From an uncultured virus (IMG/VR IMGVR_UViG_2523533505_000001) (lineage: Duplodnaviria; Heunggongvirae; Uroviricota; Caudoviricetes): a stretch of DNA of 64,000 nt. Within the stretch, counting starts at the first letter, position 1, and each line of letters starts with the position of its first letter. Below, piece after piece: positions 11,654-27,444 of this stretch. The notes under the pieces were generated by a model, which was not told the origin of the DNA, ran no database searches, and was given only the letters and a program-made list of their open reading frames with translations. The stretch lies in the IMG/VR virus record IMGVR_UViG_2523533505_000001, positions 1-64,000 of that record. One strand, written 5' to 3'. The position numbers and the translations under genes were made by a program.

Positions 11654-11673
11654 GTGCTTCCCTTCTCAGTGCT

Positions 11674-12551: not shown

Positions 12552-12626
12552 TGGGTACGTGTCGACGGGAGGCGCAAGAAGAAGGGACCCGGCCACCAGG
12601 CCAGACCCCTTCTCACTTTCGCCGTC

Positions 12627-13367
12627 TTACGCCGCGTCCTCCAGGTGCTGAACCCTCCGCGGCTGCCGGATCGGCCCGCCGTACTGGGGGTAGCTGTTTC
12701 CCCGACAGATCGCACCGACAGCCGTCGAGTTCATCCCGAAGGACATACCCAGCTCCAGGTCGGTCGCCCCGCCCGCAGAGCGCTCGCGGATCTCGATGAC
12801 CTCCTCCTCCGTGAGCATGCGGCCCTTCTGCAGGCCGAGGTCGGGAAACTCACGGCCGTGCCGGGTGTACCGCTTCCGCAGCCGGTTGATCCAGTTCTCG
12901 GTCGTCTTGTGCGGCCACCTACGCAGCACGTCGATGTCCGGGCACCTCATGCCGCGGGCCGCACACCGGCGGACCGCCTCGAGGAACTCCTCGTCGGACA
13001 AGCGGTCGACGCCGAAGCCATTCACGAAACGGCCCACGGCCACCCAGTCGAACGGATCGCCCTCCTCGACCGCGGTCTCGGGCACCAGGTCACGGACCGA
13101 CCCACGATCCGCCCACGGGGGCACGATGGGCGCGCCATGCTCGTTGAAGTCCAGCCAGCCCAGCGCCTTTCCCACCGGCTGATCCGGATCGACCAAGCCC
13201 GCCAGCACCACGATCAGCGCGTTCTTCTCCGCCTCCGACAGGCCGGCCAGCGCTTCCCGCACGTCCTCCGGGCCGCCGTCGCCGTGGACCAGGACAGCCA
13301 GGTGCGCGGCCTTCGGCAGCATGCGCTCCACCATGTCGCCGCGCTGCTCAGCGTTCAACCCGCTCAT
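12627..13367 (-). CDS. hypothetical protein with putative C-terminal HTH
   Basis: LTEEEVIEIRERSAGGATDLELGMSFGMNSTAVGAICRG. Confidence 0.75.
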   Translation of the reverse strand: MSGLNAEQRGDMVERMLPKAAHLAVLVHGDGGPEDVREALAGLSEAEKNALIVVLAGLVDPDQPVGKALGWLDFNEHGAPIVPPWADRGSVRDLVPETAVEEGDPFDWVAVGRFVNGFGVDRLSDEEFLEAVRRCAARGMRCPDIDVLRRWPHKTTENWINRLRKRYTRHGREFPDLGLQKGRMLTEEEVIEIRERSAGGATDLELGMSFGMNSTAVGAICRGNSYPQYGGPIRQPRRVQHLEDAA

Positions 13368-14059
13368 GCTGCTGCCCCCGTCTCCATCACGCCCTGCCCC
13401 AGCCCCCGCGGCTGCCACGCCTTCTCCGCCCGCTCCACCGTCATCCGCGATACGTCCAGATGAGCGGCGATGTCCGCCCGCGTGGCCCCCAGCTCCTGCA
13501 GCCGCTCCACCACGTCCCGGCACTCGTCCCGGATCAGCTCCCAATCCCAGCGCGAGTCGCCACCATGCCGGCGTGGTCTGACCGGCGCCTTTCCGCCCAG
13601 CCACCACACCGCCAGCCGAACCGTCGCCGGAGACGCCTTCAGCCCGAACTCGGAGTCCAGGAAGGCCGCCATCCTGGCCGGCGTCGCGCCCTGGTAGCGC
13701 AGCGGGTACAGCACGTGCCGCCACCGCAGCGACGTGAGCTCCAGCGCCACGTCCATGTCCGGGGTGTCGCCGAGGAGGACCTCGCACCGCAGTGCCCGCC
13801 TCTGCTGGGCGGTCAGCCCTCCGGCCACGCCCCACCGGTAGCCGGACGGGCCCTCGACGCTGATCGTCGCCTTCAGGCAGGAGTCCACCACCGGGCACCG
13901 GTGGCAGTAGCCGCGCGCCCGGCGGGTGGGCCTGATGCCTTCGTCGTAGAAGGTGTCCGGGTCGGCTCCCCGGCAGATCGCCAGGCGGAGCCAGTCGGTG
14001 GGGGCGGGCGCGGCGTCTGTCCTGGCGCGGCGGCCGATGTGGCGGACGGTGGTGGTCAT
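13364..14059 (-). CDS. WhiB-family regulator with C-terminal HTH extension
   Basis: W-x4-C...CHRCPVVDSC...WGVAGGLTAQQR; RADIAAHLDVSRMTVER. Confidence 0.9.
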   Translation of the reverse strand: MTTTVRHIGRRARTDAAPAPTDWLRLAICRGADPDTFYDEGIRPTRRARGYCHRCPVVDSCLKATISVEGPSGYRWGVAGGLTAQQRRALRCEVLLGDTPDMDVALELTSLRWRHVLYPLRYQGATPARMAAFLDSEFGLKASPATVRLAVWWLGGKAPVRPRRHGGDSRWDWELIRDECRDVVERLQELGATRADIAAHLDVSRMTVERAEKAWQPRGLGQGVMETGAAA

Positions 14060-14601
14060 GCGGCTGCTCCGGTGAGGATGTAGAGGCGGATGGTGGCGCC
14101 GGGCTTGTCCAGGGCTTCGGGGTCCTCCCCCGGGTAGACCTTGCGGATCGTGAGCTCGGTGATCTGGGAGTCGTCCTTGATGACCCCGGACTCGGACAGG
14201 GAGTCCAGGCAGGCGCGGGCGTGGTGGTCGATGTCGGTGCTCGAGCGGGTGATCGGCCAGGTGCGGCGCCGCTTCGGGGCGGTCTTCGGCTTCGACACCG
14301 TGATCGTGATGACCGCGCGGGTGGGCACGTCCGCATACAGGCCGTGCTTCTGCTTCGGGATCTGGCAGACGGCGCAGGTCCCGGCCCAGTTGGTGAACCC
14401 GTGCGCGCCGGTGGCCTCGCGGGCGGCGGTGATGATGTCCTTCCGCCACGGCTTGAGCACCTTGGCGTTGCTGTGGACAGCGGGCCGGCCCTTCCCCATG
14501 AAGGACACGCGGCCTTGCCCGGCCGGGTCGCCGTACACGGTGATGTCGGCGACCTGCTGCCAGGTCACGCCGGGAATCGGATCGGGGGCGGTCATGGTCA
14601 C
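14056..14601 (-). CDS. rusA: RusA-family Holliday junction resolvase
   Basis: DIDHHARACLDSLSESGVIKDDSQI motif; G.P..QG N-terminus. Confidence 0.88.
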   Translation of the reverse strand: MTMTAPDPIPGVTWQQVADITVYGDPAGQGRVSFMGKGRPAVHSNAKVLKPWRKDIITAAREATGAHGFTNWAGTCAVCQIPKQKHGLYADVPTRAVITITVSKPKTAPKRRRTWPITRSSTDIDHHARACLDSLSESGVIKDDSQITELTIRKVYPGEDPEALDKPGATIRLYILTGAAA

Positions 14602-14807
14602 GAGGTGAGGTCCTTCAGGGGTATGCCGCGGCGCAGGTGGGTCGCCTGGCCGGGCAGATGTCCGAGGTGGTGGAGGCCGCAGAAGCGGCATTCGTACGGG
14701 CGTAGCCGGTCCCCGCCCGTACGGCGTATCTGACGGGCCCGTCGTCGAGCGAGGGAGCGGCTGAAGTAGCGGACCTTCCCCAGGCACGAGGTCTCGTACT
14801 CGGTCAT
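14598..14807 (-). CDS. small basic Zn-finger-like protein
   Basis: CLGKVRY...RPYECRFCGLHHLGH. Confidence 0.7.
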   Translation of the reverse strand: MTEYETSCLGKVRYFSRSLARRRARQIRRTGGDRLRPYECRFCGLHHLGHLPGQATHLRRGIPLKDLTS

Positions 14808-15997
14808 CGCGGCGCCGGGAACTCGTCGTGGGTGCGGCCGTCCAGCTCCCGGCCGGCTTTTTTCTTCCCGAGGCGGTACATGGCGGTGAGGGAGGCCCTG
14901 CCGTGATCGGCGCGGACGGCCTCGCCGTAGCGGGGGCCGTCGGGGTAGGCCAGGTCGCCGGGCTGGTAGACGGTGCCGTCGTCGGCGACGGTGATGCCGA
15001 GTCCGCGCCCGGTGGTGATGACCTTCCCGTTCTTGTCGACGGGCCAGTCGACGCCCCACTCGCCCCACTGCTTGAACAGGAAGGGCACTCCGGAGTGGGC
15101 GCACTGGTTGCGGATGGTGCGGAACCAGTTGGGGTGCGCGGGCCGCGCTTTCGGGCCGGACTCGCCTCCGGCGATGACCCAGTCGACGCGCGGGCCGGTG
15201 ACGATGCTGTGCATGGTCATTCCGGTGCTGGTGGTGTGCTCCGGGCCGGGCCCGGGCCGTCCGTCGAGCCAGTAGGTGAGCTGGGGCCGGTGCCCCCTGT
15301 AGTCGCGCTTGCCCCACAGATCCACGGGCCCGATGAGCGGCTCGCACGACAGGAAGCGGACGGCGGCCGGGGTCTCGAGGAGGGCGGGGATGCGGATGTC
15401 GGCCCACTGCTGGTTCTCGACGCTGACGCCGAGCCAGACTCCGGGAAGCGGCCACGGCGCGACAGTGACGCGCTGCTCGGCGTCGGTGGGGAGGCCGGGG
15501 ATACGGTCCGGGTTGGCCTGAGATACCGCCCACGCCATCTTGGAGCGGAAGTGCGTACCGGGTGCGTGCCCGGCTCCGCACCTGCACTCGTCGCGGAGGA
15601 GGGACCGCATCCGTGCGTGGCGCTTGGTCAGCAGTTGGTAGGAGTGCTGCGGCGTGAGCGCCATGACGGCGAACACCTTGGCGATGTACTCGTCGGGGAC
15701 GTTCTTGTGGAACAGGTCGGACTGGCTGTTCACGAAGACCTTGACGGGCTTCTTCCAGGACAGGGGCTGGAGGAGTCGGTCCTCGAGGAGGTTGATTTGT
15801 CCGGTCCAGTCGACCCGTCCGTCGGCCTTGTGCGTGGTCCCGGTGAACGCGGCCGCGATGGCCGGCTGGGGGTTGCTTGTGCGGACGTGCGCGGTGGTGA
15901 TCGCGTAGCACGCGTCGCAGCCGGGACTCACGCGGTCGCAACCGATGATCGGGGACCAGGTCTTGTCGGCCCACTCGATGCTGGTGTTGGTCGCCAT
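14804..15997 (-). CDS. DUF5131 (phage Gp37/Gp68, radical-SAM-like) protein
   Basis: IEWADKTWSP, CDRVSPGCDACYA, FVNSQSDLFH, WVIAGGESG, FKQWG. Confidence 0.95.
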   Translation of the reverse strand: MATNTSIEWADKTWSPIIGCDRVSPGCDACYAITTAHVRTSNPQPAIAAAFTGTTHKADGRVDWTGQINLLEDRLLQPLSWKKPVKVFVNSQSDLFHKNVPDEYIAKVFAVMALTPQHSYQLLTKRHARMRSLLRDECRCGAGHAPGTHFRSKMAWAVSQANPDRIPGLPTDAEQRVTVAPWPLPGVWLGVSVENQQWADIRIPALLETPAAVRFLSCEPLIGPVDLWGKRDYRGHRPQLTYWLDGRPGPGPEHTTSTGMTMHSIVTGPRVDWVIAGGESGPKARPAHPNWFRTIRNQCAHSGVPFLFKQWGEWGVDWPVDKNGKVITTGRGLGITVADDGTVYQPGDLAYPDGPRYGEAVRADHGRASLTAMYRLGKKKAGRELDGRTHDEFPAPR

Positions 15998-16353
15998 CAG
16001 GCTGTCCTTTCCTGGTGCTCGGCGCGGAGTCGGTCGATGTGCTTGAGGAACGCGGCGGTCTCGAGCGGGGCGATGCGGGTGGCCTCGTCGAGGGCGGTCT
16101 GCCGGTCGTAGCGGTAGATCTGCTCGCGGGTGAGTTCTCCGCGCGGCACCCACCTGGTGCCGGTCCAGGCGTGCTCGTTGCCGGGGTTGTCGTTGAGGAC
16201 GGCCCAGCCGTTGCCGTAGCCGTCCGTACGCCGCTTCACCCGCAGGTCGGCGCGCCCGGCGTAGGGGTGACCGGGGCACGGCACGCGGAACTCGGAGGCC
16301 TGCTCGAGCGCGGCGGAGAGGGCGGCGACGTAGCCGGGGGTGTGCTCAGGCAT
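15997..16353 (-). CDS. hypothetical protein
   Basis: GGAG RBS; operonic overlap. Confidence 0.65.
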   Translation of the reverse strand: MPEHTPGYVAALSAALEQASEFRVPCPGHPYAGRADLRVKRRTDGYGNGWAVLNDNPGNEHAWTGTRWVPRGELTREQIYRYDRQTALDEATRIAPLETAAFLKHIDRLRAEHQERTA

Positions 16354-16636
16354 CGGACTGCTCCGGCAGGGCCGCGTCCTGGACCTTCTTGGTGCTGCCA
16401 GCGACGTGGTCGCACCGTCCGGAGATGCAGGGTTCCGCGCGGCGTACCCACTCCGCGTGGCCCACGAGTTCGTGCCTCCATCCCTCGCGCGCTTCGCGTC
16501 GACGGTCCGCAACCCGGGACGTGAACTCCTTGTGGGCGTCTTCTGCAAGTGGGCCGACGTACTCCTCCAGGACGCTGCCGGTGATGCAGCCGGCGGGGTT
16601 GATGCGGATCCAGAACTGGCGGGTCTTGGTGGTCAC
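16346..16636 (-). CDS. hypothetical protein
   Basis: AAGGAG RBS; GTGA coupling. Confidence 0.7.
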   Translation of the reverse strand: MTTKTRQFWIRINPAGCITGSVLEEYVGPLAEDAHKEFTSRVADRRREAREGWRHELVGHAEWVRRAEPCISGRCDHVAGSTKKVQDAALPEQSDA

Positions 16637-17250
16637 GGCTGGGGGTGCTCCTTCGGCTGGTCGGTGTCGGCTTCGGCGGTGCGGGTGGCGAGGCCGGTGT
16701 CGATGTCGTCGCGGGACAGGGGCTGGGTGTCGGCGGCGGAGGCGGTGGCCCGCTGGATGCCTTCGCGGAGCTGGAGGATGGCGGCCGGCTTCGGGGGCGT
16801 GGCGCCGTGGAGTCCGTCGCAGCGGTTGGTGGCGGCGCGGGCGGCGGCGAGGTCGCGGGCGGTGTGGATGAGGTGTTGGTGGGTGGCGCCGTGGCGGCAG
16901 GGGATGTGGGCGGTGAACTGGGGGGTTTGGTCGGTGGTGGCGTGGTGGGGGGTGTGGGTGAGGACGGTTCCGTTGTCGAGGTGGGCGGTGGGGCCGTTCC
17001 AGGCGCGGACGGGGATGGGGAGGCGGGCGGCGGCGGAGGCGAGGGCGGCGCGGATGGCGGCTTGTTCGTGGGCGCCCATGGGGCCGACGAAGACGCGCCT
17101 GCGTACGGGGAGCGGAGGCCGGAGGTCGACGTCCGCCGACTGGGCCTTGGCGGCCGGCCGGGTAGGCGTCTTCTTGGCCGTGGCCTTGCGGGCGGCGGGT
17201 GCCTTCTTCGCGGCGGTCTTGCGTGCGCTGCTGGTGGTGGTCCGGGCCAT
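16633..17250 (-). CDS. hypothetical protein with histone-like Lys/Ala N-terminus
   Basis: ARKTAAKKAPAARKATAKKTP. Confidence 0.7.
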   Translation of the reverse strand: MARTTTSSARKTAAKKAPAARKATAKKTPTRPAAKAQSADVDLRPPLPVRRRVFVGPMGAHEQAAIRAALASAAARLPIPVRAWNGPTAHLDNGTVLTHTPHHATTDQTPQFTAHIPCRHGATHQHLIHTARDLAAARAATNRCDGLHGATPPKPAAILQLREGIQRATASAADTQPLSRDDIDTGLATRTAEADTDQPKEHPQP

Positions 17251-17327
17251 GGCCGGTCTCCGTCCTGCGGTTCGGGTGGTGTGGTGCGGTGCTGCTCCGG
17301 TGCTGGTGCTGACGAGGTGGGGGTGTG

Positions 17328-17357
17328 CCGTACGGCCCCGGACGTGGGGCCGTACGG
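17328..17357 (-). terminator. intergenic hairpin
   Basis: CCGTACGGCCCC...GGGGCCGTACGG. Confidence 0.5.
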
Positions 17358-17362
17358 GCGGG

Positions 17363-17701
17363 CTACCGCTTGTTGGGGGTCTCGCGGTGGCGGGTGTGGA
17401 GGGTGGAGGTCTCGCGGCCCTGCTTGCGGGCGAGCCAGGTCTGGGCGACCTCGGTCTCGGCGCCGATGCCGGCGATGTGGCTGTTGAAGATGCCGATGAC
17501 GGTGTTGGCGTAGCCGATGAGGTACAGCTCGGCGGGGACGGAGCCGTGGGTGTCGGCGTCGAGCATGTCCTCGGCGCGCCGCTTGAGGGTGTGGACGTCC
17601 TCGCCGGCGCGGTGTTCGTCGTAGGCGTCGGCGACGCCGAGGGCGTAGAAGGGGTCGCGGGCGAAGGGGCTGACCGCGGTGGCGAGGGTCTGGATGGTCA
17701 T
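17363..17701 (-). CDS. hypothetical protein
   Basis: AAAGGG RBS; GC3 bias. Confidence 0.7.
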   Translation of the reverse strand: MTIQTLATAVSPFARDPFYALGVADAYDEHRAGEDVHTLKRRAEDMLDADTHGSVPAELYLIGYANTVIGIFNSHIAGIGAETEVAQTWLARKQGRETSTLHTRHRETPNKR

Positions 17702-17718
17702 GGCGGCGGGTGCCCCTT

Positions 17719-18150
17719 TCAGGCGGCGTTGGGGGTGTTGGTGGCCTGGTGGGCGGCGCGGAGGATGCAGCCGATGACCTCGGACATGCTGGGCGGTCGG
17801 GTGCAGCCGATGGGCGGGGTGCGGACCCAGTTGGAGACGTGCTCGATGACGTCGGGCTGGCCGTTGGTGTCGGGGACGGCGTAGTTGGTGATGGCGGCGG
17901 ACACGGCCCGGATGGCGGCCATGGCCTGGAGGTTGGTCTCGATCAGGTCGAGGGCGTGGCCTTCGTCGGTGAAGAACTGGTCGGGGACGTTGAGGCGGTC
18001 GGGCATGTCGTAGGGGCCGGTGGCGAGGTAGATGGCGGCGCAGATGTCGAGGCGGCCGGTGTTGTGGTCGGCGAACTGGTCGCCGGTGTGGAGGCCGCGG
18101 TGGGTGATGATGTGGGCGGTCAGGCGGAGGATGTGCGTGGTGCTGCGCAT
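17719..18150 (-). CDS. hypothetical protein (DUF6197-like)
   Basis: AGGAG RBS; LDICAAIY...EVIGCILRAA pattern. Confidence 0.65.
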   Translation of the reverse strand: MRSTTHILRLTAHIITHRGLHTGDQFADHNTGRLDICAAIYLATGPYDMPDRLNVPDQFFTDEGHALDLIETNLQAMAAIRAVSAAITNYAVPDTNGQPDVIEHVSNWVRTPPIGCTRPPSMSEVIGCILRAAHQATNTPNAA

Positions 18151-18227
18151 AGGGGCTCCTGTGCGGGGTTGTGTCACCCGGCCGCGCAGAGGCGGGGTCG
18201 TGCGCGGCCGGGGAGCCAGTGGGTGGG

Positions 18228-18569
18228 TCAGTCCTCGGTGGGGGCCGGGTGCTGGTCGGCGCACGGGGGGCACTGCCGGATGGGCAGGTTGAAGCCGTGG
18301 GACTCGCGGATCGTGCGGGCGTCCGGGTCGGCGTTGTTGAAGATGACGGAGCAGACGCAGTCGCAGGAGCACTTGAGGACTTCGCCGCCGTACTCGATGG
18401 GGATGCCGGTGATGTGGGCGGCGGCGAGCATGAGGGCGTTGTAGGTGCCGGAGTCGATGGTGTCGTCGGCGAGTTCGTAGTAGCGGTCGAGGCGGGTCTG
18501 CTCGTCGAGGGTGAGGGCGCGGTAGTTGGCGGTGGTGGGCTGGGTGTGGGCGTGCGTCATCACGGCCAT
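18228..18569 (-). CDS. hypothetical Cys-rich protein
   Basis: GGAG RBS; CSCDCVC...CPPC; first gene behind promoter at 18639-18667. Confidence 0.7.
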   Translation of the reverse strand: MAVMTHAHTQPTTANYRALTLDEQTRLDRYYELADDTIDSGTYNALMLAAAHITGIPIEYGGEVLKCSCDCVCSVIFNNADPDARTIRESHGFNLPIRQCPPCADQHPAPTED

Positions 18570-18638
18570 GGCGGCGCTCCAGGGGTGGGGTTGCTCCGTT
18601 AGGCCGCTGTGGGTGGGCCTGTCGGTGTCTGCACAACC

Positions 18639-18667
18639 ACATTAACCCATACTCCATTGCGGAGCAA
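18639..18667 (-). promoter_or_regulatory. sigma70-type promoter with conserved spacer operator
   Basis: TTGCTC-17-TAATGT; spacer contains GCAATGGAGTATGG. Confidence 0.8.
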
Positions 18668-18691
18668 TGGTTCTTAATGTGTGGGCATGAG

Positions 18692-18723
18692 AAAAGCCCC
18701 GACCCGCTCAGGGGTCAGGGCTT
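18692..18723 (-). terminator. intrinsic terminator
   Basis: Hairpin AAGCCC...GGGCTT with TTTT tail on the minus strand. Confidence 0.7.
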
Positions 18724-18745
18724 GTGTTCGGCTGGTGGCCGGCTC

Positions 18746-18982
18746 TCAGTGTCTGCCGCGCTCGCGGGCCTCGACCTCCCGGGCGTGGATCTCAAGGAGG
18801 TCGCTCCAGGAGGCGCAGTCGGCGCGCTGCACACGCTCCACCTGGATGCCGTGCTTCACGCACCAGCGTTTCAGGGTGCGGACGGTGGCCTCGTGGCCGG
18901 TCTCACGGAACAGCTCGGAGGCCTCGGTGAGGGTGACCAGGTCGGAGGCGGGCAGGTGGGGGCTGAGCGAGGTGACGGCCAC
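18746..18982 (-). CDS. small excisionase/MerR-like HTH protein
   Basis: GGGAGG RBS; LVTLTEASELFRETGHEATVRTLKRWC. Confidence 0.65.
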   Translation of the reverse strand: MAVTSLSPHLPASDLVTLTEASELFRETGHEATVRTLKRWCVKHGIQVERVQRADCASWSDLLEIHAREVEARERGRH

Positions 18983-19104
18983 GTGGCCTCCCATGTACGG
19001 CGGCCATCGTTCGCAGCTCCGGCGGCCGATACGGGTGGACCTTGGGGGAGGTCCCGGTGGTGGTGTGGTGCTGGTGGTGCTGAGTGAGACCCGCCTACCC
19101 CGGT

Positions 19105-19683
19105 TCAGGTTGCATGAACTCGAACAGAATTTTCGACCCGGTACTGGGCGGCGACGTGCACGTAGGCGAGGCGGGCGAGGCTGAAGGAGCTGGAGAGGCC
19201 GGCCTTGGTGGTGCAGCGGGTGTTGGTGCACACGGCGCGCTGTGCCTCGTGGACCCACATCAGGCCGAACGTGCGGCAGCCGGGGCACCGGTGAGGGCGG
19301 ATCACCTTGGTGTCGCCCATGGCGATCGCGTGCTCGAGGCGCTGGCGGTAGACGATGGTGTCGCGGCGCTGCTGCTGGGCTGTGGGGGCGTTGGCGGTGT
19401 GCTCGCGGTACCAGTCGTAGACGGCTTCGACGCGGGCGGGGAGCGGTCCGGCGTCCGGGTTGACGGCGCGGGCGTGGGCGGCGACCTCGGCGACGGAGCG
19501 GTCGATGTGCTCGATGATGCCGGCCGGGTAGGGCAGGCCGGGCGCGACAGGGGTGGGTCGGGAGCCGGGGCCGGTGACGCAGTGCCCTTCGGGCCCGGTG
19601 ACGGGGTGTTCGCGGAAGTGCCTGTCGAGGATGCGGAGGCGGTTCGATGCGGTGTCGTCGGTGTCTTCGCCAGCGGTGCTCAT
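19105..19683 (-). CDS. hypothetical protein with C-terminal Zn ribbon
   Basis: CPGCRTFGLMW...CTNTRC. Confidence 0.7.
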   Translation of the reverse strand: MSTAGEDTDDTASNRLRILDRHFREHPVTGPEGHCVTGPGSRPTPVAPGLPYPAGIIEHIDRSVAEVAAHARAVNPDAGPLPARVEAVYDWYREHTANAPTAQQQRRDTIVYRQRLEHAIAMGDTKVIRPHRCPGCRTFGLMWVHEAQRAVCTNTRCTTKAGLSSSFSLARLAYVHVAAQYRVENSVRVHAT

Positions 19684-19909
19684 GGGCGTCCCCCGTCCCC
19701 TTGTGGCGGCCTCGGGGGCGCGGGGTGCCGGTGCGTGATCGTGCAGGGGCGCGCGCCGGAGGCCGGAGGTGTGTGCTCCGGGTGTTCCGGACGCCCCATG
19801 GTGGCACGTAAGTGGCCGAAGTTGTACTGATTGTGTCTGATGATCAGCGCAATGTGATGTGCCTGAACGTTCAACGAATCCAGTTACTTCGGGTAAGACT
19901 CGGGCATAT

Positions 19910-20281
19910 TCACCCCACCGCACGGGGGACGTCCAGCAGACCGCGGAGCATCGCGTCCAACTCCCCCCGCTGACCTGCGTCCACGACCCCCTCCTCCACC
20001 GCGCCCTCGAGCATTCCCCGCACGATCGTCAGCGTCAGCGCGTACACCTCCGCCGTCTCATCCTCGGTCAGGGAATGGCCCAGCTCGTTGAACATCTCCT
20101 CGATGTGCTCGGCGAGGAGCTCCGGCGAACTACTGCCCCCCGGACCGGGCTCAGGGCCCTCGTTCATGTGCGGCCCCCGTCCTGCCTGCCTGCGGACTCG
20201 GTCATGGAGGGGGATTACGGCCGCGCCACCCGCCGTGTTCATCACGACGGCGGGGGTGGGGGCGGGCTCTGCTGCGGACAT
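19910..20281 (-). CDS. hypothetical protein
   Basis: GGAG RBS; acidic helical C-terminus. Confidence 0.55.
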   Translation of the reverse strand: MSAAEPAPTPAVVMNTAGGAAVIPLHDRVRRQAGRGPHMNEGPEPGPGGSSSPELLAEHIEEMFNELGHSLTEDETAEVYALTLTIVRGMLEGAVEEGVVDAGQRGELDAMLRGLLDVPRAVG

Positions 20282-20950
20282 CGGGGCGTCTCCGCTCCTC
20301 CGGCAGATCGGGAAGGTGGTCGTACGCCCAAGGGGAACCCTCGCTCAGGCCTGTGGTCTACGCCAGCGGCTGCCAGTCCGCGTGCGCAGACCGCCACTGT
20401 GACACCAGCAAGGGCATGTTGGTAAGGCAAGGGCAACTTTTGGCGCTACCTATAACCGCCCGGTGTACAGATCCGGCCGACCTCGTCACACCGGGCAACC
20501 ACCAGCGGTTTTCGTTGAACATGAGTCAGCCCCCAGCAAGGGACAACGCACGGGGAGCGGAGTTTGCCGACAACGCGACCGTGCCCTTGCGGGGGCTCTC
20601 GAGACCTCACGAGCGCATGCCCGTCAGATGACGGCAGTCTAGCCAGACAACTCGTCACGCGGGCAGAAGCCGGAGAACCTCCCGGTCCACACCGTCCGGA
20701 CGGTTCGCAGCGGCGCGGGCAGTGCAGGCGGCCGCGCTGGGCCGGAGGGCGGGCGGTGGAGGGCTGCGAACCACCGGCGCCCGGTCCCCCGGCCCGGCGG
20801 CCGCCCGCCCACGTGGGGGGTGGCACCTGTCACCCAACCCCGCATAAATGCACGAACGGAACCCACGCGCACAGAGATCACCCGGTTGAGTGATGAAAAA
20901 CCGCAGCCAACCGGGGCGAACACGACTGGAATTCGTTGGGCACGAAGAAC

Positions 20951-20988
20951 GGTCCGGCTCCCCCGCCGTCACGGATGGGAGCCGGACC
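20951..20988 (-). terminator. hairpin terminator of the par operon
   Basis: GGTCCGGCTCCC...GGGAGCCGGACC followed by TTCTT on minus. Confidence 0.7.
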
Positions 20989-21004
20989 GCCAGCCCCGCG
21001 CGCC

Positions 21005-21946
21005 CTATCGGCGCCTGCCTGCCGCCGGGAGCTGAGGCAGGAACTCGTCCAGGACCGCGTTCAGGAAGTCGCTGCGGCTGGGGAACCCGTACGCCTGGCT
21101 GAAGGCGTCGTAGTTGGCCAGCTCCTGCTCCGACGGACGGAACGACTGCTGCCCTGAGTCCTTCAGACGCCCGCGTACGGCGCGCCGGCCGACGACCTCG
21201 CCGAGCATGCCGTCCTCGTCGTAGTCCTCCTCGTCGACCGCGTTGTGCTGCTGGTACACGTCCCCGAGGAGCTTGCCGAACAGGCTGTTGCGCTTGCAGT
21301 ACAGGAACGCCCGCCGCACCACGAGCGCGTTGGACGGCTCCTTGTCCCCGGCCATCTTCTTGGACAGCTGGTAGTGGGCGAATCGCTCACGCACGCTGTG
21401 GCTGACCATGACGGTGCACTGGGTGGCTCGGGCGCCCGCGGGGCCGAGAGTGGGCACCTGCACCTGGTCGATCTGGACGTCACTGCGGTAGGCGAGCGGT
21501 ACGGGCCGATGCGTGGCCGGAGGCCCGGCGACGGCCCGTACCGCAACCTCCTGGGAGCTCCCCTCGTGTTCCTCCTGCTGCGCTGGCTCGGGCTGTTCTG
21601 GCCCGCGTTCGGCCCTCGGCGGCGGGGCGACCGTCTTCGGCGTCTCGACGACAGGCACGGGAGCCGGCGCGGGGACGACCGCCTCCTCCGTCTGTGCCGA
21701 CTCCACCCTTCGAGCCGGGCCGGGACCGGGAGGGGCCTCCACCACCGACGGGACGGGCACCGCTGAGGCGGCCTCCTCCGGCTGCGTCTCCGCAGGCGGC
21801 GTGGGGCTGGTTGTCGCGCCGGGGGCAGCGTCGTTGGACTGTCCGCGGCGGCGGCGCCGGTTACCGAGAGCGGAGTTGGCGAAGGAGGCCAGCGCGTCCT
21901 GGTCCGGCAGCTCGGCGTTCACGTCCGTCGCCTTGCTCGAGCTCAC
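21005..21946 (-). CDS. ParA partner (putative centromere-binding protein)
   Basis: GTGA-coupled to parA; disordered N-terminus; RHH-like C-terminus (FPSRSDFLNAVLDEFL). Confidence 0.7.
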   Translation of the reverse strand: MSSSKATDVNAELPDQDALASFANSALGNRRRRRGQSNDAAPGATTSPTPPAETQPEEAASAVPVPSVVEAPPGPGPARRVESAQTEEAVVPAPAPVPVVETPKTVAPPPRAERGPEQPEPAQQEEHEGSSQEVAVRAVAGPPATHRPVPLAYRSDVQIDQVQVPTLGPAGARATQCTVMVSHSVRERFAHYQLSKKMAGDKEPSNALVVRRAFLYCKRNSLFGKLLGDVYQQHNAVDEEDYDEDGMLGEVVGRRAVRGRLKDSGQQSFRPSEQELANYDAFSQAYGFPSRSDFLNAVLDEFLPQLPAAGRRR

Positions 21947-22923
21947 GCTTCCTCACCGGCCTCCGCCTGGGCGCGGCGCGCGGTCATCTCCTGCAGCACC
22001 TCGACCGTCAGCGACTGGTAGTCGCCGGCCAGCGCCTTCATCGACTTCACCAGCGGTGGCGGCAACTCCTTCGACGCGCGGAGTTCCTGCGGCACCTTGC
22101 CGCGGAGGCGGGCCTCGACGGCTGCGGCCTCGACGTGCCGGATGGTCTGCTCGAACAGAGGGGCCGCGCCCTGGAGGTCTTCCTCGAGGTGCTCGCGGAT
22201 CTTCTCCTGGACCTTGGTGGCAGAGCTGTTCGTCGCGAACAGGACGACGCCGAGGAGTTGGAGGACGTCGTTGATCTGGCTGGCGGTGCCGAAGCGCTTG
22301 GCGACGGCGCGCAGGCCCTTGCGGGAGGAGGGGTCGGACTTGGAGGGGATGAGGACGTAGTCGGAGGCCACGAGCGCGGCGAGCTGGAGGACGTCGGAGC
22401 CGGGGGCGACGTCGAGGATGATGACGTCGTAGTCGTCGCGTACCTGGTCGATGGCGGCCGCGTAGATGCCCATCCACGCGTCACGGTCGTCGGGGTCGGC
22501 GATCTGCTTGGAGGCACGACGCTGGCAGTACAGCTCTTCGATGATCTCTTCGAGCTGTTCGCCGCCCGGGACGACGTGCAGGCCTGGGCGCGCCTGCCCG
22601 GTCGGGGTGAGGGGCTTGCCCTCGAGGATGGCTGCCGTCTGGGCGGCGCCCTTGTCGTTCATCGCCGAGTTGGAGATGCCGAGGTCTTCGCAGTTGTTGC
22701 CCTGTTCGTCCAGCTCCATCAGCAGGACGTCTTTGCCGAGCTTGGACAGGGCAACACCGAAGGCGGACGAGAGGGAGGACTTGCCGACGCCTCCCTTGCC
22801 GTTGACGACGGCGATGACCTTGGGTTCGTGCTGGCCGGAGTCGATGAGGGTGTAGCGGCGATCGAGGCTGCGCTTCACCCCCTCCAGGTTCATCAGGCTG
22901 ATGGGGACTTGCAGTGTGCTCAC
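21943..22923 (-). CDS. parA: ParA-family partition ATPase
   Basis: VVNGKGGVGKSS deviant Walker A; ELDEQGN; YDVIILDVAP. Confidence 0.95.
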   Translation of the reverse strand: MSTLQVPISLMNLEGVKRSLDRRYTLIDSGQHEPKVIAVVNGKGGVGKSSLSSAFGVALSKLGKDVLLMELDEQGNNCEDLGISNSAMNDKGAAQTAAILEGKPLTPTGQARPGLHVVPGGEQLEEIIEELYCQRRASKQIADPDDRDAWMGIYAAAIDQVRDDYDVIILDVAPGSDVLQLAALVASDYVLIPSKSDPSSRKGLRAVAKRFGTASQINDVLQLLGVVLFATNSSATKVQEKIREHLEEDLQGAAPLFEQTIRHVEAAAVEARLRGKVPQELRASKELPPPLVKSMKALAGDYQSLTVEVLQEMTARRAQAEAGEEA

Positions 22924-23025
22924 GGATGCGCCTTCCTGCCGGGTCTGGGTGAGGTCTCGGCGCACGACCCTATATGGCGATCATGCTCGGCCTGTGGAGA
23001 CCCGGGCGGAAGAGCGGTAAGCGCT

Positions 23026-23095
23026 GCTATGGGGCGTGGTAGCTAGCGGGCCTTATGGCGTGACCACTAGCGCGCTATATAGGACGCCCCATAGC
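23026..23095. promoter_or_regulatory. putative par promoter/centromere region
   Basis: 12-bp inverted repeat GCTATGGGGCGT/ACGCCCCATAGC in a TA-rich patch upstream of parA. Confidence 0.45.
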
Positions 23096-23124
23096 CCCAT
23101 TGCTAGCCCTTTACCTAGCGTGGT

Positions 23125-23235
23125 TCACGGCTCGTCGATGTCCGCGTCCTCGTCGAGGAAGTCGTCCTCGGTGTCGTCGGGCCATTCGGGCTCGATGAAA
23201 AGTCCAGCGTAGGGCGGCTTCTCCAGCGTGGGCAT
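23125..23235 (-). CDS. 36-aa highly acidic peptide
   Basis: AAGGAG RBS; MPTLEKPPYAGLFIEPEWPDDTEDDFLDEDADIDEP. Confidence 0.6.
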   Translation of the reverse strand: MPTLEKPPYAGLFIEPEWPDDTEDDFLDEDADIDEP

Positions 23236-23256
23236 GAGCAGGCTCCTTGCGTACGG

Positions 23257-23469
23257 TCAGACGGTGGTCGGCTGCGGGGTCTTGAGGGCGAGGATGTGCT
23301 TGTCGAGCATCGCGCACTCCACCTCGATGGCGTACCTGTCGCGGCGCTCAGTGTCGGTCAGGTCTGGGTGGGCGAAGTACCAGTCCATGGTGTGCGCCCA
23401 GCAGTCCCCGCCCATGGGGTGGTAGTCGGCGTGGAGGAGGCACATGCCGAGGGTGGCGCTGTGGTCCAA
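23257..23469 (-). CDS. hypothetical protein
   Basis: GGAGG RBS before TTG. Confidence 0.6.
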   Translation of the reverse strand: MDHSATLGMCLLHADYHPMGGDCWAHTMDWYFAHPDLTDTERRDRYAIEVECAMLDKHILALKTPQPTTV

Positions 23470-23484
23470 GAGGGGTGCCTCCGT

Positions 23485-24483
23485 TCAGGCCGCGGTCGGC
23501 CGGTAGTTGTGGCGAGCGCGGTCACGCGCGCAGTCGGCTGCGATACGGGCGCAGGCGAGCTGCACCCACTGATCGTTCTCGACCGCCGTGTGGGGCACGT
23601 CGACGGAGGACCCGAACACCTCGTCGCCCTTCCACGAGTGGTTACGGAAGGAAATGCCCGCCTTGCTGGACCAGTCGACGACCCAGCGCTCGGTCTTCCG
23701 TCCGCGTTGGCGGCCGGTGGTCCACTTCTCCAGGCTGAGCCGGACGTCGTGGACGGTGCCGTCGGGCATGCACACCCGCCCGTCGACGGGCTCGCCCTGG
23801 GGCTCCCGTACGACGGTGCGCTTGCCGAGCAGGTAGTGGCGGGGGTCGACTCGAAGGGATCCGGACATCCACCACGGGTCGCTCGCGCGGGACTCGTCGC
23901 GGCGCGCCCACAGCTGCCAGTACAGGCAGCCGTGGTGGATGCTGACCTCGATGACGCGGGAGTCGTAGCCGGTCGGGTTGAGGCGGCGCTGCAGCCACCG
24001 GCCGTGGTTCTCGGTGTGGAGGTAGAGGGCGCCGAGCGGCCCGAGGCACAGGTTGCCGCTGAGGACGTGCTCGCTGCCCGGGTTGCCCACCTTGAAGCCG
24101 ATGCCCAGGTTGCTGGAGACGCGGCCGCCAATCACGAGCTGCCCGCCCACGGTGCCCGTCAAGCTGGCCGGCCACGGGCCGGGGTTCTGGAGGAGGTAGT
24201 GCGGGTTTTTGTGCCCGTCGTGCGGGCCGACGTATCGGTCACCGATGTCGGAGACGGCGGGGTCGAGACGGCCCTGCGGGTCGGTGCGGGTGCCGCAGCG
24301 GTCGCACGCCACCCACCGGCTGGGCTTCAGGTCGCCGATGCCCTTGGTGCCGTCCACGACCGGCTTGTGCCCGAGCAGGCGGCACAGGGCGACGATGCGG
24401 GGGATGTCGTGCACCCAGAACCCGCGGTTCAGGAGGCCGCGTTCGCCGCGGTCCTTGCTGTAGTCGATGCTGTAGAGGCGCAT
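23485..24483 (-). CDS. hypothetical protein
   Basis: GGGAG RBS; CRLLGHKP...CDRCG; Trp-rich. Confidence 0.75.
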   Translation of the reverse strand: MRLYSIDYSKDRGERGLLNRGFWVHDIPRIVALCRLLGHKPVVDGTKGIGDLKPSRWVACDRCGTRTDPQGRLDPAVSDIGDRYVGPHDGHKNPHYLLQNPGPWPASLTGTVGGQLVIGGRVSSNLGIGFKVGNPGSEHVLSGNLCLGPLGALYLHTENHGRWLQRRLNPTGYDSRVIEVSIHHGCLYWQLWARRDESRASDPWWMSGSLRVDPRHYLLGKRTVVREPQGEPVDGRVCMPDGTVHDVRLSLEKWTTGRQRGRKTERWVVDWSSKAGISFRNHSWKGDEVFGSSVDVPHTAVENDQWVQLACARIAADCARDRARHNYRPTAA

Positions 24484-24559
24484 ACGGGCTCCCAGGCGCA
24501 GCGATGGGGGTGGTTGCTGCGCTCAGGCTCCCTTGGATTCGCCGGAGTGTTCCCCTGGC

Positions 24560-25363
24560 TCATGCGACGTCGAAGGCGCGGCGGGGCTGGGTGAGTCCGG
24601 CGGCCTCACGGTGCTTGTAGGCGAGGGCTGCGGCACGCGATGCCTCGGAGCTGCCGTGGGTGGGCCCGGCGAGGCGCTCGAGGCGTTCGCGTTCGGCCAG
24701 GTACTCGGCGTGCTCGCTCTCGGGTAGCCGCTTGGCGCGCAGGGCCTGGTCCTGCCGCTGGATGGCCTCCACGGTGTACGGGTCGGCTGGCTCCCGGGAT
24801 GGCCGGTGGGCGAGGGTGAGCTCGAGGGCGGTCCGGTATCCGTCGGAGGCGGTCTCCCGCGTCCGCACCGGTGCCGGGGCGGACGGCTGACCGGGCGCTC
24901 GGGGGCCGGTCTCGTCGCGCGCGGCCGAGGTGTCGCCAGGGGCGAGGATCCGCAGGGCGCGAACTGCGCGGTTGCCGGTCTTCTCCCGGATGCGGCGCAG
25001 GATCTGGGGCTGGAAGAGTCTCAGCTGGGTGGCGTACGCGTCAGAGACGGGCTTGAGGTGGAGGACGCCGGTGTCGTGCTCCAGCCGTACGGCCGCGACC
25101 TTGCCGACGAGTTCGGGGGCGATGGCCGGCCACTGGTCGAGAACGCTGCCGCCCTCCTCCGGGGGTTCCCAACCGCGTTCGGTCATCATGCCGGTGATGG
25201 CGGAGCCCAGGGCGAGCGGGTCCCGGCCGCCGGTGCGCGCGACCCGGCGGGTGCGGCTGGTCTTCACCGGCTGGACAGGTCGAGTCTTGGCGGCCGCGCG
25301 GGCGGCAGCGAGAGCCGCTCGGGCGAGGTCGATGCCGGACTCGGCGGGTGGGGTGTCGGTCAT
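24560..25363 (-). CDS. dciA: DciA/DUF721 family protein (helicase-loader-like)
   Basis: GIDLARAALAAAR...RDP...RGW...QWPAI...AYATQLRL, as in actinobacterial DUF721. Confidence 0.85.
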   Translation of the reverse strand: MTDTPPAESGIDLARAALAAARAAAKTRPVQPVKTSRTRRVARTGGRDPLALGSAITGMMTERGWEPPEEGGSVLDQWPAIAPELVGKVAAVRLEHDTGVLHLKPVSDAYATQLRLFQPQILRRIREKTGNRAVRALRILAPGDTSAARDETGPRAPGQPSAPAPVRTRETASDGYRTALELTLAHRPSREPADPYTVEAIQRQDQALRAKRLPESEHAEYLAERERLERLAGPTHGSSEASRAAALAYKHREAAGLTQPRRAFDVA

Positions 25364-26703
25364 GAGGGGCTCCCGTTGAGGAAGGCGAGGATGTCGGCTT
25401 CGGCGTTCCAGGTGGTGGTGTCGGCGCCGGAGAGGTCGTCGTGTCCGCGAGCGCGCATCGTCTGCTGGTAGCGGGTGATGCCTTGCCGGAGGGCGGCCAT
25501 GACGTCGAGCTGCTGGCCGATGCGGGCGGTGAACGCACCGGGGGTGGGGTTCTCCAGCTCGTACTGGTCTCGGGCGGCCTCGTAGCGGTCGGCGCGCTGC
25601 TGGCGGTCGGCGAGGACAGTGCGGATGTAGTTCGCCGGGGCGTTCGGCCGCCAGCGGGTGCCGTCGCACAGGCCGTTCAGGAAGCCGGCGATGCCGTACG
25701 CGTCGAGGCCCCGGTCGATGAGCGGGCGCAGCGCGAACGCCAGCCGGCGAAGGCCTTCGCGCTGGGTCCAGTTGACGAGGGGGCGTACCTGGCGGGCGAT
25801 GCGGATGTCCTCGGCGACCTGGAGGGCGTGCCTGCCGGTCCCCTTGCCGCTGCTGCGGTTGTTGGTCGACTTCTGGGTGGGGATGGATGCGCTGTCTCGG
25901 CTCGCGCGCTCGCGCGAGGTGTAGTTCTCTTCCCCCCCATCTACCTTCAGCTTTCCCTCTTCCTTCTCCACAGTGAGGGAAGGGGGCTCAAGGCCCTCAG
26001 GGTCAGAGTTGTCCACAGCCCGGTTATCCACAGGGGCCGCTCCCGCCTGGGCGGAGTCCGAGGAGGCGGAAGGGGAGGGGGCTCGGCGGCCGCGCACGTC
26101 CACCACGATCCGCGCCGCATACCCGGAGCCGACGACTGTGTGGCCCATCGCCTCGTCGTACACGGGCGGGATGACGGCCGCGTACACCGTGGCGGTCGCC
26201 GCGTAGCCCTTGATGCCGAGGAGGCGGCGGATGTTCGCGCGGGTCCCGTGCTGCGCCCAGGCCAGCGCGCCCAGCTCCCGCAGATACGAGACGTGCCGCT
26301 TCACCGTGGCGCGCGACAGGCCGAGCCGGGCCGCCATCTCCTCGAGGCAGTACCGGACGTGTCCGGTCGTGTAGTCCATGCGGTCGGCGAGGTCCTCGGC
26401 GACGCGGAGCGTGGTGGCGGTCGCCCGCGGGTGGTGGCCGGCTGCGATCAGCCACTCCACGGCGCGACGCCACCGACGCGGCCCGCTCCGCCGTGACGCG
26501 GTGTGAGCCACCTCCTGGCAGGAGCCGTGCACGAGGGCGAACCGGACGCCACTGTAATCGCTCGCACGTTCGAATTCGAGGTCAGGGCCCTGTCCGGGGT
26601 GAGGAACCTGGGGGCACCCGGTGTCACCCGAGTAGGGGGAGATAAGCCGCGAATCGCCCTGTGCGGGGACGCGAAGCTGACAACTAGCCGTGCGCTGAGG
26701 CAC
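25360..26703 (-). CDS. putative plasmid replication initiator (winged-HTH)
   Basis: LEEMAARLGLSRATVKRHVSYLRELG; coupled to DciA; internal DnaA boxes; start uncertain (26511-26805). Confidence 0.7.
   Translation of the reverse strand: MPQRTASCQLRVPAQGDSRLISPYSGDTGCPQVPHPGQGPDLEFERASDYSGVRFALVHGSCQEVAHTASRRSGPRRWRRAVEWLIAAGHHPRATATTLRVAEDLADRMDYTTGHVRYCLEEMAARLGLSRATVKRHVSYLRELGALAWAQHGTRANIRRLLGIKGYAATATVYAAVIPPVYDEAMGHTVVGSGYAARIVVDVRGRRAPSPSASSDSAQAGAAPVDNRAVDNSDPEGLEPPSLTVEKEEGKLKVDGGEENYTSRERASRDSASIPTQKSTNNRSSGKGTGRHALQVAEDIRIARQVRPLVNWTQREGLRRLAFALRPLIDRGLDAYGIAGFLNGLCDGTRWRPNAPANYIRTVLADRQQRADRYEAARDQYELENPTPGAFTARIGQQLDVMAALRQGITRYQQTMRARGHDDLSGADTTTWNAEADILAFLNGSPS
26009..26032 (+). 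promoter_or_regulatory. two tandem DnaA boxes (putative origin)
   Basis: TTGTCCACA 26009-26017 and TTATCCACA 26024-26032. Confidence 0.75.
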
Positions 26704-26794
26704 TATGTACCTGCCGTCCTGCGGACACAACAAAGCCCGCCTGGTGGTGAGGGTGGTTCCGTCCAGAACCTGTAGGTCGCTCGAACACTCGGGC

Positions 26795-26940
26795 CCGGTC
26801 GCCAAACCGGATCTGAGATTCGGGCCTTAGCTCCGAGAGCCAACTCGGAGCCGTGGTACGAGGCCGCGCACGGTGCGCCAACACCAGCGGCCAGCGGTTG
26901 AGGGTGAAGCCCCCGCCAAGGGGCTCAGGAACCTCCCGCT
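26795..26940. ncRNA. putative structured rep leader / antisense RNA with four (C/A)GCCAA-loop hairpins
   Basis: Four different stems, each closing the same hexaloop. Confidence 0.6.
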
Positions 26941-26949
26941 AGGAAGTCG

Positions 26950-27444
26950 CTACGTCACTTGATCTCCCTTACTGGGTGAGGTCTGTTCTGCCTCGCGGTA
27001 CGAGGCAAGTTGGTGCTCCGCGATCCGGGCCATCTGCTGGCTCAGGCGGAGCGCGTCATCGGCCGGGACCTGAACTTCCACCTCACGGCCGACCGCCTGC
27101 TTCGTACCGTCGGTGATCTGAACGGTGAAGCACACGTGATGGTGACGGCGCGCGGCCTCCCGAAGAGTGGCCACATCGTCCGTGGCGGGCAGAGGGCCGG
27201 TGGAGAAGGTACGCGGGAACGTGAAACTGGTGACTTTGCCCAGCAACCGACGCCTCAGCGAGGGACGCATCTTCTGGTGCATGTTCAGCAGAGCAACGGC
27301 CGTGCTGACGACCTCGCGGACATCCTCCACTGAAGCGCCGGACGTCAGAAGTTCCTGAACCTGGCGTAGCACGGTCTCCGCAAGAACGGTGGGCGAGGCA
27401 GCAAGGACGTCCCCGTATGGGTTGCTCTCATTGTCGGGGCTCAT
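26950..27444 (-). CDS. hypothetical protein
   Basis: GGAGG RBS; ATGA coupling; lower GC3. Confidence 0.65.
   Translation of the reverse strand: MSPDNESNPYGDVLAASPTVLAETVLRQVQELLTSGASVEDVREVVSTAVALLNMHQKMRPSLRRRLLGKVTSFTFPRTFSTGPLPATDDVATLREAARRHHHVCFTVQITDGTKQAVGREVEVQVPADDALRLSQQMARIAEHQLASYREAEQTSPSKGDQVT

Follow-up and report, generated by a model that had tools for sequence, protein, structure and literature searches.

How the pZL12-related phage-plasmids that are common in Streptomyces set their copy number, and why some strains hold two of them, are questions raised by a non-coding locus next to the rep-like gene of an uncultured virus (IMG/VR record IMGVR_UViG_2523533505_000001), where an array of four hairpins displays one six-letter loop word. 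The stretch analysed, referred to below as the window, comprises 64,000 nucleotides and represents the first 64 kb of this 91,026-b virus record, which bears direct terminal repeats. Judged by its sequence, the source element is a pZL12-like Streptomyces phage-plasmid of 91 kb, and in nucleotide comparison the rep/array region matches Streptomyces replicons exclusively; a scan of the window for tRNA and tmRNA genes found none. The reading put forward here, to which we give an even chance of being right, is that a countertranscript of ~300 nt, made from the + strand, controls copy number and compatibility by kissing the rep-sense RNA at complementary loops.

The hairpin array and its conservation

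An earlier interpretation drawn from the letters alone (the sequence-only reading) had described four hairpins with a (C/A)GCCAA hexaloop upstream of rep, and these are present exactly as described and at the same coordinates (Table 1). The loop words start at 26800, 26838, 26876 and 26914, i.e., with an exact 38-nt period, a spacing that is not universal among the homologs introduced below, where it amounts to 35-38 nt in class A and to 28, 45 and 46 nt in class B. On the + strand (C/A)GCCAA occurs 24 times in the 91-kb genome and 17 times in the window, and in both counts four of the occurrences fall inside the 120-nt array. A script that searched the 91,026-b genome for the words in loops closed by perfect stems of at least 4 bp returned 13 matches, among which the four of the array are the sole clustered ones and the sole ones with exact six-letter loops, the other nine being scattered, with stems of 4-6 bp and loops of 7-10 letters. 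Folding of 26770-26960 as + strand RNA recovers the four hairpins at -86.6 kcal/mol (z = -2.56, 2 of 200 shuffles being equally stable); the - strand gives z = -1.20, with 25 of 200 shuffles equally stable.

Counted over both strands of the window, (C/A)GCCAA is found 76 times against 50 +/- 7 expected, a number reached by none of 100 shuffles. This surplus lies mostly on the - strand, taken as the main coding strand, and codon usage is assumed to be its cause.

The four hairpins are all held by a non-coding cassette of ~310 bp (26677-26986), and in the alignment of homologs conservation extends from ~26613-26646 to exactly 26986. A 2.2-kb query around the array finds matches in 96 PLSDB plasmids and in phage ZL12 (pZL12), and a 451-b non-coding query (26560-27010) finds them in 57 PLSDB plasmids, with 75-90% of nucleotides conserved; most of these 57 plasmids measure 85-100 kb, like pZL12, and some 150-890 kb. 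Within a sample of 401 Streptomyces genomes, a cassette match at E <= 0.001 was obtained in 15 and a strong one (E 7.6e-24 or better) in seven. The homologs compared here derive from plasmid records, genomes, one IMG/VR contig identified by an exact-pattern scan of viral contigs, and pZL12, five loci having been contributed by a Rep-based search for related loci. The first alignment held 34 distinct homologs and later counts 37 or 38, leaving out L032 (identical to L042), L052 (identical to L051) and the duplicate loci L009 and L010; in the covariation and strand tests, class A comprises 27 sequences and class B seven. The PLSDB matches H80-H86, among them the 89.7-kb plasmid of S. ambofaciens ATCC 23877, cover the left part of the cassette only (query 52-224), taking in the promoter region and the first hairpins, and other hairpins or loop words may occur in those arrays.

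The sequence-only reading had also held that the stems differ while the loops are kept, as under selection for structure, and folding combined with covariation across the homologs bears this out for the hairpins, whose fold and not the letters of the stems is what selection maintains. In the 27 class A sequences, 47 pairs in nine helices are 96.8% paired, compared with 32-55% in slid controls. Changes on both sides of a pair are seen at nine pairs versus 4.3 +/- 1.4 in shuffles, one in 500 of which reaches this number, and the covariation score is 0.120 versus 0.080, a value that none of 500 shuffles attains. Class B contributes further stem variants at the same positions. The loops, for their part, carry one word in each plasmid.

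Individual hairpins vary to different degrees. Pair 149/160 in the stem of hairpin 1 is GC in 17 sequences and CG in five, and hairpin 2 shows both-sided changes at three of its six pairs (e.g., GC in 12 and AU in nine) as well as the most variable loop of the four in class A. Hairpin 3 is nearly invariant in class A, with GGTG/CACC replaced by GATG/CATC in two sequences, and is rebuilt into a longer hairpin in class B. Hairpin 1 is absent from L029, L015, L033 and L008, and hairpin 4 from L001, L038 and L050. The number of loop-bearing hairpins per plasmid thus varies between three and four, sometimes with a fifth copy of the word, which forms the loop of the GGTTC/GAACC hairpin (CGCCAG in L035 and L036, CTGGCG in L001).

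A locus with no dedicated function, consisting of terminators or GC-rich palindromes between convergent transcripts, would accord with the ready folding of GC-rich DNA, with a - strand z of only -1.2 and with the overlapping convergent transcripts that are common in Streptomyces. The conservation of the block at 75-90% over 57 plasmids speaks against it, as do the covarying stems, the invariant loops, the concerted loop switches and the conserved promoter, and these comparative data make such an explanation hardly credible.

The predicted antisense RNA and its partner

To the left of the array lies the putative promoter P+, the best-kept block of the cassette. The sequence-only reading had proposed CTGACA-18-CACTAT as a possible + strand promoter, and comparison of 38 homologs strengthens this proposal: the -35 element is CTGACA in 37 and ATGACA in one, the -10 element is CACTAT in 32 and CAAGAT in six, and the spacer measures 18 nt in all 38, although its sequence varies. 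A generic sigma-70 scan of 26300-27300 called no site, P+ included, because CACTAT agrees with TATAAT at only three of six letters. With P+ oriented along the + strand and rep on the - strand, P+ reads as an upstream-of-rep promoter firing away from rep, as in the countertranscript control of R1, the I-complex, pIP501 and pT181, and RNA made from it would therefore be antisense to the - strand RNA heading for rep and dciA.

The predicted RNA starts at ~26713-26716 and has a size of ~300 nt, with about 9-10 hairpins. In its 5' part, the loop of the short GC hairpin is C(TTCG)G in about ten homologs (alignment read by eye), and the longest + strand A run reaches four or more in 20 of the 38 homologs. 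Beyond the conserved 3' block stands a further GC hairpin, fixed in position and different in sequence in most homologs (again as read by eye from the alignment); its role as terminator is tentative because a U tail is absent. The block 26677-27006 as a whole may represent the gene for a structured non-coding RNA of ~300 nt on the + strand, with the same evenly balanced confidence that attaches to the entire countertranscript reading.

Several helices point to the + strand as the one that is structured. Three helix positions are predominantly U.G on this strand, namely the middle pair in the outer helix of hairpin 1 (23 of 27 class A sequences) and two pairs of the 3' hairpin at 26961-83 (23 and 16 of 27), and these helices favour the + strand because U.G there would be a C.A mismatch on the - strand. 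Local folds favour the + strand for the 5' part, the hairpin 1 domain and the 3' block in 17, 21 and 23 of the 27 class A sequences and in 6, 7 and 7 of the seven class B sequences, respectively. When the pair table is summed by hand, G.U pairs occupy 10 of about 566 cells in the loop-bearing stems and 85 of about 671 cells in the flanking helices; near-pure Watson-Crick loop stems are expected if the four hairpins fold on both strands. This pattern fits a + strand RNA whose four central hairpins would also fold on the complementary strand. The raw pair count of 94 G.U against 10 A.C is inflated, because the structure had been predicted on the + strand.

Table 1. Coordinates of the features at the rep locus (positions in the window)
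Feature	Position	Strand	Details
Putative promoter P+	26677..26706	+	-35 CTGACA (26677-82), 18-nt spacer, -10 CACTAT (26701-06)
5' part of the predicted RNA	26711..26770	+	5' hairpin, A-rich linker (ACAACAAAG), short GC hairpin, then GGTTC-CGTCCA-GAACC (26755-26770)
Hairpin 1	26795-26810	+	CCGGT (26795-99), loop CGCCAA (26800-05), ACCGG (26806-10)
Hairpin 1, outer helix	26779-83 / 26821-25 (domain 26779..26825)	+	GCTCG / CGGGC
Hairpin 2	26830-26851	+	GCTCCGAG, loop AGCCAA (26838-43), CTCGGAGC
Hairpin 3	26862..26892; core 26872-26885	+	GGTG, loop CGCCAA (26876-81), CACC
Hairpin 3, outer stem	26862-67 / 26887-92	+	GGCCGC / GCGGCC
Hairpin 4	26908-26925 (domain 26894..26939)	+	AGCCCC (26908-13), loop CGCCAA (26914-19), GGGGCT (26920-25)
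Hairpin 4, outer helix	26894-26903 / 26932-39	+	GCGG..GAGG / CCTCCCGC
Conserved 3' block	26949..26986	+	hairpin GATCTCCC-TTAC-TGGGTGAGGTC (26961-83), listed as terminator-like by scan
GC hairpin, candidate terminator of the + strand RNA	26990..27006	+	GCCTCG-CGGTA-CGAGGC, no U tail
Start-stop element	26950..26970	-	Shine-Dalgarno-like AAGGGAG (26970..26964), GTG (26958..56), ACG, TAG (26952..50)
Upstream open reading frame, 164 aa	26950..27444	-	no known family; stop TAG 10 nt before the array
rep-like initiator gene, helix-turn-helix	25360..~26532 (start approximate)	-	weak Pfam helix-turn-helix matches and PHROG 391
DciA-family gene, directly after rep	24560..25363	-	Pfam PF05258, E 6e-11, 42.8 bits vs cut-off 24

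The genes around the array all lie on the - strand, and the non-coding gap between the 164-aa open reading frame (ORF) and rep measures 420 b. GC content by codon position in this ORF (0.69/0.46/0.75) is coding-like. At its end stands a start-stop element that is found in all 38 homologs as a purine-rich run, 5-6 nt and (A/G)TG-NNN-TAG on the - strand; the start codon is GTG in 30 and ATG in eight, and the middle codon is ACG, ACT, ACA or ACC (all Thr) in 36, TCT in one and ATG in one. In the window and in most plasmids the upstream ORF terminates at the TAG of this element; pZL12 and L031 keep the start-stop block as well, although the methyltransferase gene that precedes it there stops short of it. 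Ribosomes on - strand RNA apparently reach within 10 nt of the array, and it is therefore likely, on this reading of the sequence, that rep-sense RNA crosses it. A possible rep-sense attenuator of the pIP501/pT181 type was considered at ~26730-26750, where a U run comes after a short GC hairpin on the - strand; this candidate is weakened by A.C mismatches in its - strand stem, the same hairpin folding better on the + strand, with G.U pairs there or a loop of UUCG.

According to the proposed mechanism, P+ would drive the ~300-nt RNA rightwards, as the antisense of the - strand RNA that comes out of the upstream ORF towards rep and dciA. The RNA would display four, sometimes five, hairpins with one six-letter loop (CGCCAA here), and the rep-sense RNA would display the complementary UUGGCG loops, a U-turn word of the YUNR type. 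Pairing of the two RNAs would begin with kissing between loops and spread from there, and rep expression would fall, the candidate ways being occlusion of the Shine-Dalgarno sequence and start-stop element (26950-26970), cleavage of the duplex or premature termination. The RNA would act as a dosage-dependent inhibitor that sets copy number, with the loop word as a compatibility code. On this view this plasmid would make both RNAs, the two would kiss, and their pairing would lower rep.

Loop words, flips and Rep families

Uniform inside one plasmid, the loop word differs between plasmids. Loops of the CGCCAA type are displayed on the + strand in 30 of the 38 homologs, with hairpin 2 as the least strict; CGTCAA occupies all four loops in L037, L042, L049 and L054 and three of four in L053. 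In eight of the 38 homologs the loops are flipped, reading TTGGCG (pZL12, L038 and L050) or YTGGCA/CGGCAA (L040, L041, L043, L046 and L017), while the stems are in place and the promoter is still on the + strand. The flip is complete in all hairpins of the seven class B sequences (count of 37) and extends to three of four hairpins in L017, where the loop of hairpin 2 deviates. No plasmid of mixed orientation was seen among the 38 homologs, nor would one be expected, because an RNA with both words would pair with itself. The assignment of UUGGCG to the rep strand in the sequence-only reading is correct for the window and fails as a general rule, being reversed in these eight homologs, pZL12 included.

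A flip of this kind leaves the complementarity of sense and antisense RNAs intact, yet would destroy a protein site, which favours the antisense reading. It also bears on the proposal that the + strand RNA is real and acts otherwise, either as a replication RNA (primer, R-loop or origin-activating transcript) or as a protein-binding scaffold, which we consider unlikely, if worth keeping in view. The length and elaborate structure of the RNA would suit such roles, and the cassette (75-90% at the nucleotide level) is far better conserved than Rep (~30% at the amino acid level between the two families), as if it served conserved host machinery; furthermore, prophage-plasmids of actinobacteria are known whose replication depends on a non-coding RNA (PMC7157519). 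Identical loops would moreover be a natural design for a repeated protein site. However, in the flipped plasmids the same transcribed strand carries the precise reverse complement of the word (UUGGCG for CGCCAA), a change that a protein bound to the loops would not tolerate. No candidate binding protein varies in step with the loop types, Rep being no exception, and a primer or R-loop would not need conserved hairpins with covarying stems.

Plasmids that share a cell provide a further view of the loop word. Four strains carry two cassette plasmids each, and in all four the words differ (CGCCAA versus CGTCAA) on nearly identical stems: L044 (CGCCAA) and L049 (CGTCAA) in NBC_01240, L051 and L037 in NBC_00842, L052 and L053 in NBC_00873, and L055 and L054 in NBC_01369. 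Set against a UUGACG target, CGCCAA would meet a central C.A mismatch, which counts in favour of the antisense reading, as does the switch of IncK1/IncK2 compatibility by one loop nucleotide (PMC10724649). The comparisons support the view that the loops act as words of specificity, in the manner of loop-kissing antisense control. The multi-loop kissing antisense RNA of the sequence-only reading retains selection on structure, an antisense promoter and loops as specificity words, and has to be revised in size, the predicted RNA being larger (9-10 hairpins, ~300 nt).

The Rep proteins encoded next to the cassettes belong to two families, 59-95% or 28-33% identical to the N-terminal 150 residues of the window Rep; nine loci are without a Rep match, probably owing to short flanks. 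CGCCAA, CGTCAA and flipped YTGGCA/CGGCAA loops are found with both families, and TTGGCG loops with the first only (L001 and L038). Cassettes with ~75-80% nucleotide identity to that of the window stand beside a ~30%-identical Rep in L012-L015, L027, L029, L030, L034, L039-L041, L045, L048, L049 and L054. As loop types are shared across the Rep families, the cassette is a module that recombines independently of rep, with loops that do not co-evolve with Rep, and the joining of one cassette to two Rep families implies recombination between P+ and the rep start.

This independence also concerns the possibility that the array acts as DNA, through unwound-origin hairpins, a cruciform or hexamer 'iterons' serving Rep, DciA/DnaB loading or primase. 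The array lies directly beside rep and dciA, and the pZL12 paper reportedly defines a repA replication locus. A word that is uniform per plasmid and different in co-residents would be an iteron signature too, a flip would be harmless to a double-stranded site or a cruciform, and the loop-bearing stems are Watson-Crick on both strands. On the other hand, six letters alone repeat, their flanks being unrelated covarying inverted repeats for which a double-stranded site has no need; the loop type does not follow the Rep family; and the 38-bp spacing is lost in class B (28 and 45). The fixed-geometry promoter reading into the array, the helices with U.G on the + strand only and the C(UUCG)G loops point to RNA instead, and we consider a DNA-level role improbable. 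In iteron origins whole sites, typically of 17-22 bp, repeat and co-vary with Rep, whereas here the repeat is limited to six letters with unrelated flanks and occurs beside both Rep families.

As the element is a phage-plasmid, an RNA of immunity or lifestyle, comparable to C4 of P1/P7 or CI of P4 and pairing with repeated words in lytic or antirepressor transcripts, has also to be weighed. Both are structured phage-plasmid RNAs whose loops share a word that differs between heteroimmune relatives, and the concerted word changes seen here resemble the heteroimmune C4 variants. Their targets, however, are repeated words of the same operon upstream of antirepressor genes, whereas the present cassette travels with rep and not with phage genes: it always adjoins rep on one side, its neighbours on the other differ between plasmids (DUF6221, methyltransferase, deaminase, hypotheticals), and it is also carried by plasmids of 150-890 kb. 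The Rfam C4 model gives no match, no other exact six-letter-loop hairpin with the word occurs in the 91-kb genome, and three of the 13 other + strand words of the window, compared with the ORF list, include none at a convincing gene start. Such a function is therefore very doubtful.

Several observations weigh against the countertranscript reading itself. No rep-sense promoter was found, inspection of the conserved right block by eye having revealed none that is convincing. Most family 1 loci carry a conserved TACAGT ~20 nt before the conserved Rep N-terminus, which may serve rep as a separate promoter located downstream of the array; in that case the RNA would face a 3' untranslated region instead of a rep leader. 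With about 270 nt between the array and the rep start, the ribosome site is too distant to be simply occluded, and at ~300 nt, with its 9-10 hairpins, the RNA would be a long one among antisense RNAs of copy control. Because a cis-antisense RNA is complementary to its target by construction, the identity of the word in four loops is left unexplained; it could come, we infer, from avidity or from the need to change every loop in order to escape a co-resident inhibitor. Folded over the whole region, the class A sequences lean to neither strand (the + strand being better in 14 of 27), and RNAalifold on the - strand gives 119 G.U pairs of its own, which are taken to close mainly the UUGGCG loops; with as many G.U pairs on the - strand and a neutral whole-region energy, the strand argument rests on the particular helices named above. 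The co-resident pairs represent at most three independent cases, because L051 and L052 are identical large-plasmid cassettes.

The evidence on expression cuts both ways. This plasmid was not found as RNA in public runs (shares of sampled words 0.05). Four public runs (two soil metatranscriptomes, one guessed to be RNA and one flagged 'probably DNA') yielded one short contig each of a 90-97% similar relative; the contigs, of 216, 176, 233 and 218 nt, cover about 26805-27021, 26763-26938, 26726-26957 and 26862-27079, and three of the four lie inside the predicted RNA (within 26726-27021). Being unstranded and possibly DNA carry-over, they can be taken only as a hint.

It is tempting to go one step further and to view the six letters as a rewritable compatibility code, although this extension is rather unlikely. 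Escape from the inhibitor of a resident relative would take either the same one-letter change in every one of the four loops (CGUCAA for CGCCAA) or a full flip. The loops of a flipped regulator RNA would be complementary to those of an unflipped one, so that the two could kiss and neutralise each other, and the cassette would move between unrelated Reps. Were this so, it would amount to RNA-level warfare between phage-plasmids.

Known systems and the surrounding genes

The sequence-only reading had suggested a C4-like RNA among its options and an Rfam search for CopA and C4; neither was recovered. No Rfam family matched the whole window at the gathering score, and a search of 26500-27100 at E up to 10 returned only P36 and sR10, both irrelevant. 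Considering also the four hairpins, the lack of a pseudoknot partner and the lack of a clear attenuator, the predicted RNA is, as far as its sequence tells, a new family and a member of none of the families compared. By loop word and logic its closest counterparts are Inc RNA/RNAI with stem-loop I in the I-complex and CopA/CopT of R1; by multi-loop design they are ColE1 RNA I and pIP501 RNAIII.

In the I-complex (ColIb-P9, IncB, IncK), Inc RNA/RNAI likewise lies opposite a rep leader, that of repZ (repA), which forms stem-loop I. Their placing of the two words, with UUGGCG in the target loop and CGCCAA in that of the antisense RNA, is found in the window and in 30 of 38 homologs, and in the other eight relatives the words are on the opposite RNAs. 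The sequence-only reading had given this loop pair for both R1 and ColIb-P9: for ColIb-P9, the target loop 5'-rUUGGCG-3' appears in the title of Asano et al. 1998, as cited in PMC10724649. Loop nucleotides decide compatibility in the I-complex (PMC10724649). There, the RNA is a single hairpin of ~60-70 nt, whereas here ~300 nt would hold four identical loops and about five more hairpins. The activating pseudoknot of those plasmids has no counterpart in the form of a distal CGCCAA near the rep start, as (C/A)GCCAA is absent from the - strand between 25292 and 27469, and the actinobacterial host and the lack of any sequence or Rfam relationship set the two further apart.

CopA/CopT of R1 (IncFII) is similarly a rep-leader countertranscript that kisses by a hexaloop of the same type, and a short leader frame whose ribosome site is covered by the antisense RNA would correspond to the Shine-Dalgarno and start-stop element at 26950-26970. 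CopA differs in having two stem-loops in about 90 nt, and tap has 24 codons and is coupled directly to repA, whereas the present frame consists of two codons at a distance of about 420 nt from rep; the Rfam CopA model is unmatched. ColE1 RNA I has three kissing loops and pIP501 RNAIII four stem-loops, and they share with the present proposal the simultaneous kissing of several hairpin loops. Their loops differ from one another, however; ColE1 works without Rep, its target being a primer, and in pIP501 an attenuator lies just before repR, whereas the sole rep-sense hairpin with a U run is weak here and better on the + strand.

The prophages of cluster A mycobacteriophages, likened here by description alone, are extrachromosomal actinobacterial elements with a non-coding RNA at a parABS-proximal replication region (PMC7157519). 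They lack Rep and require the RNA for replication, in contrast to the present element, which has Rep and DciA and whose RNA is read as an inhibitor. No published description of this RNA was found in the literature covered, which includes that on pZL12 and pCQ3/pCQ4 and stops short of the pZL12 paper itself; the pSLE1 paper is without transcription-start or antisense data (PMC4487206).

If the countertranscript reading is true, loop-kissing antisense control would, to our knowledge, be described for the first time in an actinobacterial theta replicon or phage-plasmid, and the reuse of the enterobacterial IncI/IncF hexaloop would be a convergence on the U-turn loop. Compatibility would become predictable from six letters, orthogonal copy-control cassettes for Streptomyces vectors would come within reach, and the concerted switches and flips would constitute a natural experiment on the origin of incompatibility groups.

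The replication genes themselves are recognised with unequal confidence. For the rep-like gene, the Pfam helix-turn-helix matches are all under the gathering cut-offs, and PHROG 391 ('replication initiation O-like') is matched with E 4.7e-5. Rep conservation starts at codon 26532, a position at which several homologs have no start codon, and GC at third codon positions climbs to 0.97 from about 26460. The dciA ATG overlaps the rep stop, as read from the ORF translation, and the phage-plasmid seems, from these assignments, to bring its own helicase-loading factor beside its initiator. Further upstream, a DUF6221 gene and a WhiB-like gene (27830-28255 and 29158-29970) lie on the - strand in the same orientation.

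Two minor elements occupy the interval between P+ and rep. A near-palindrome, GGCAC-CCG-GTGTC (26613..26625), lies outside the RNA and is kept as GGCAC-N3-GTGCC or GACAC-N3-GTGCC before both Rep families; it may be an operator or a Rep site. Two 24-nt direct repeats (26587-26610 and 26656-26679), 75% alike and 69 nt apart, are the sole direct repeat found within 26400-27100.

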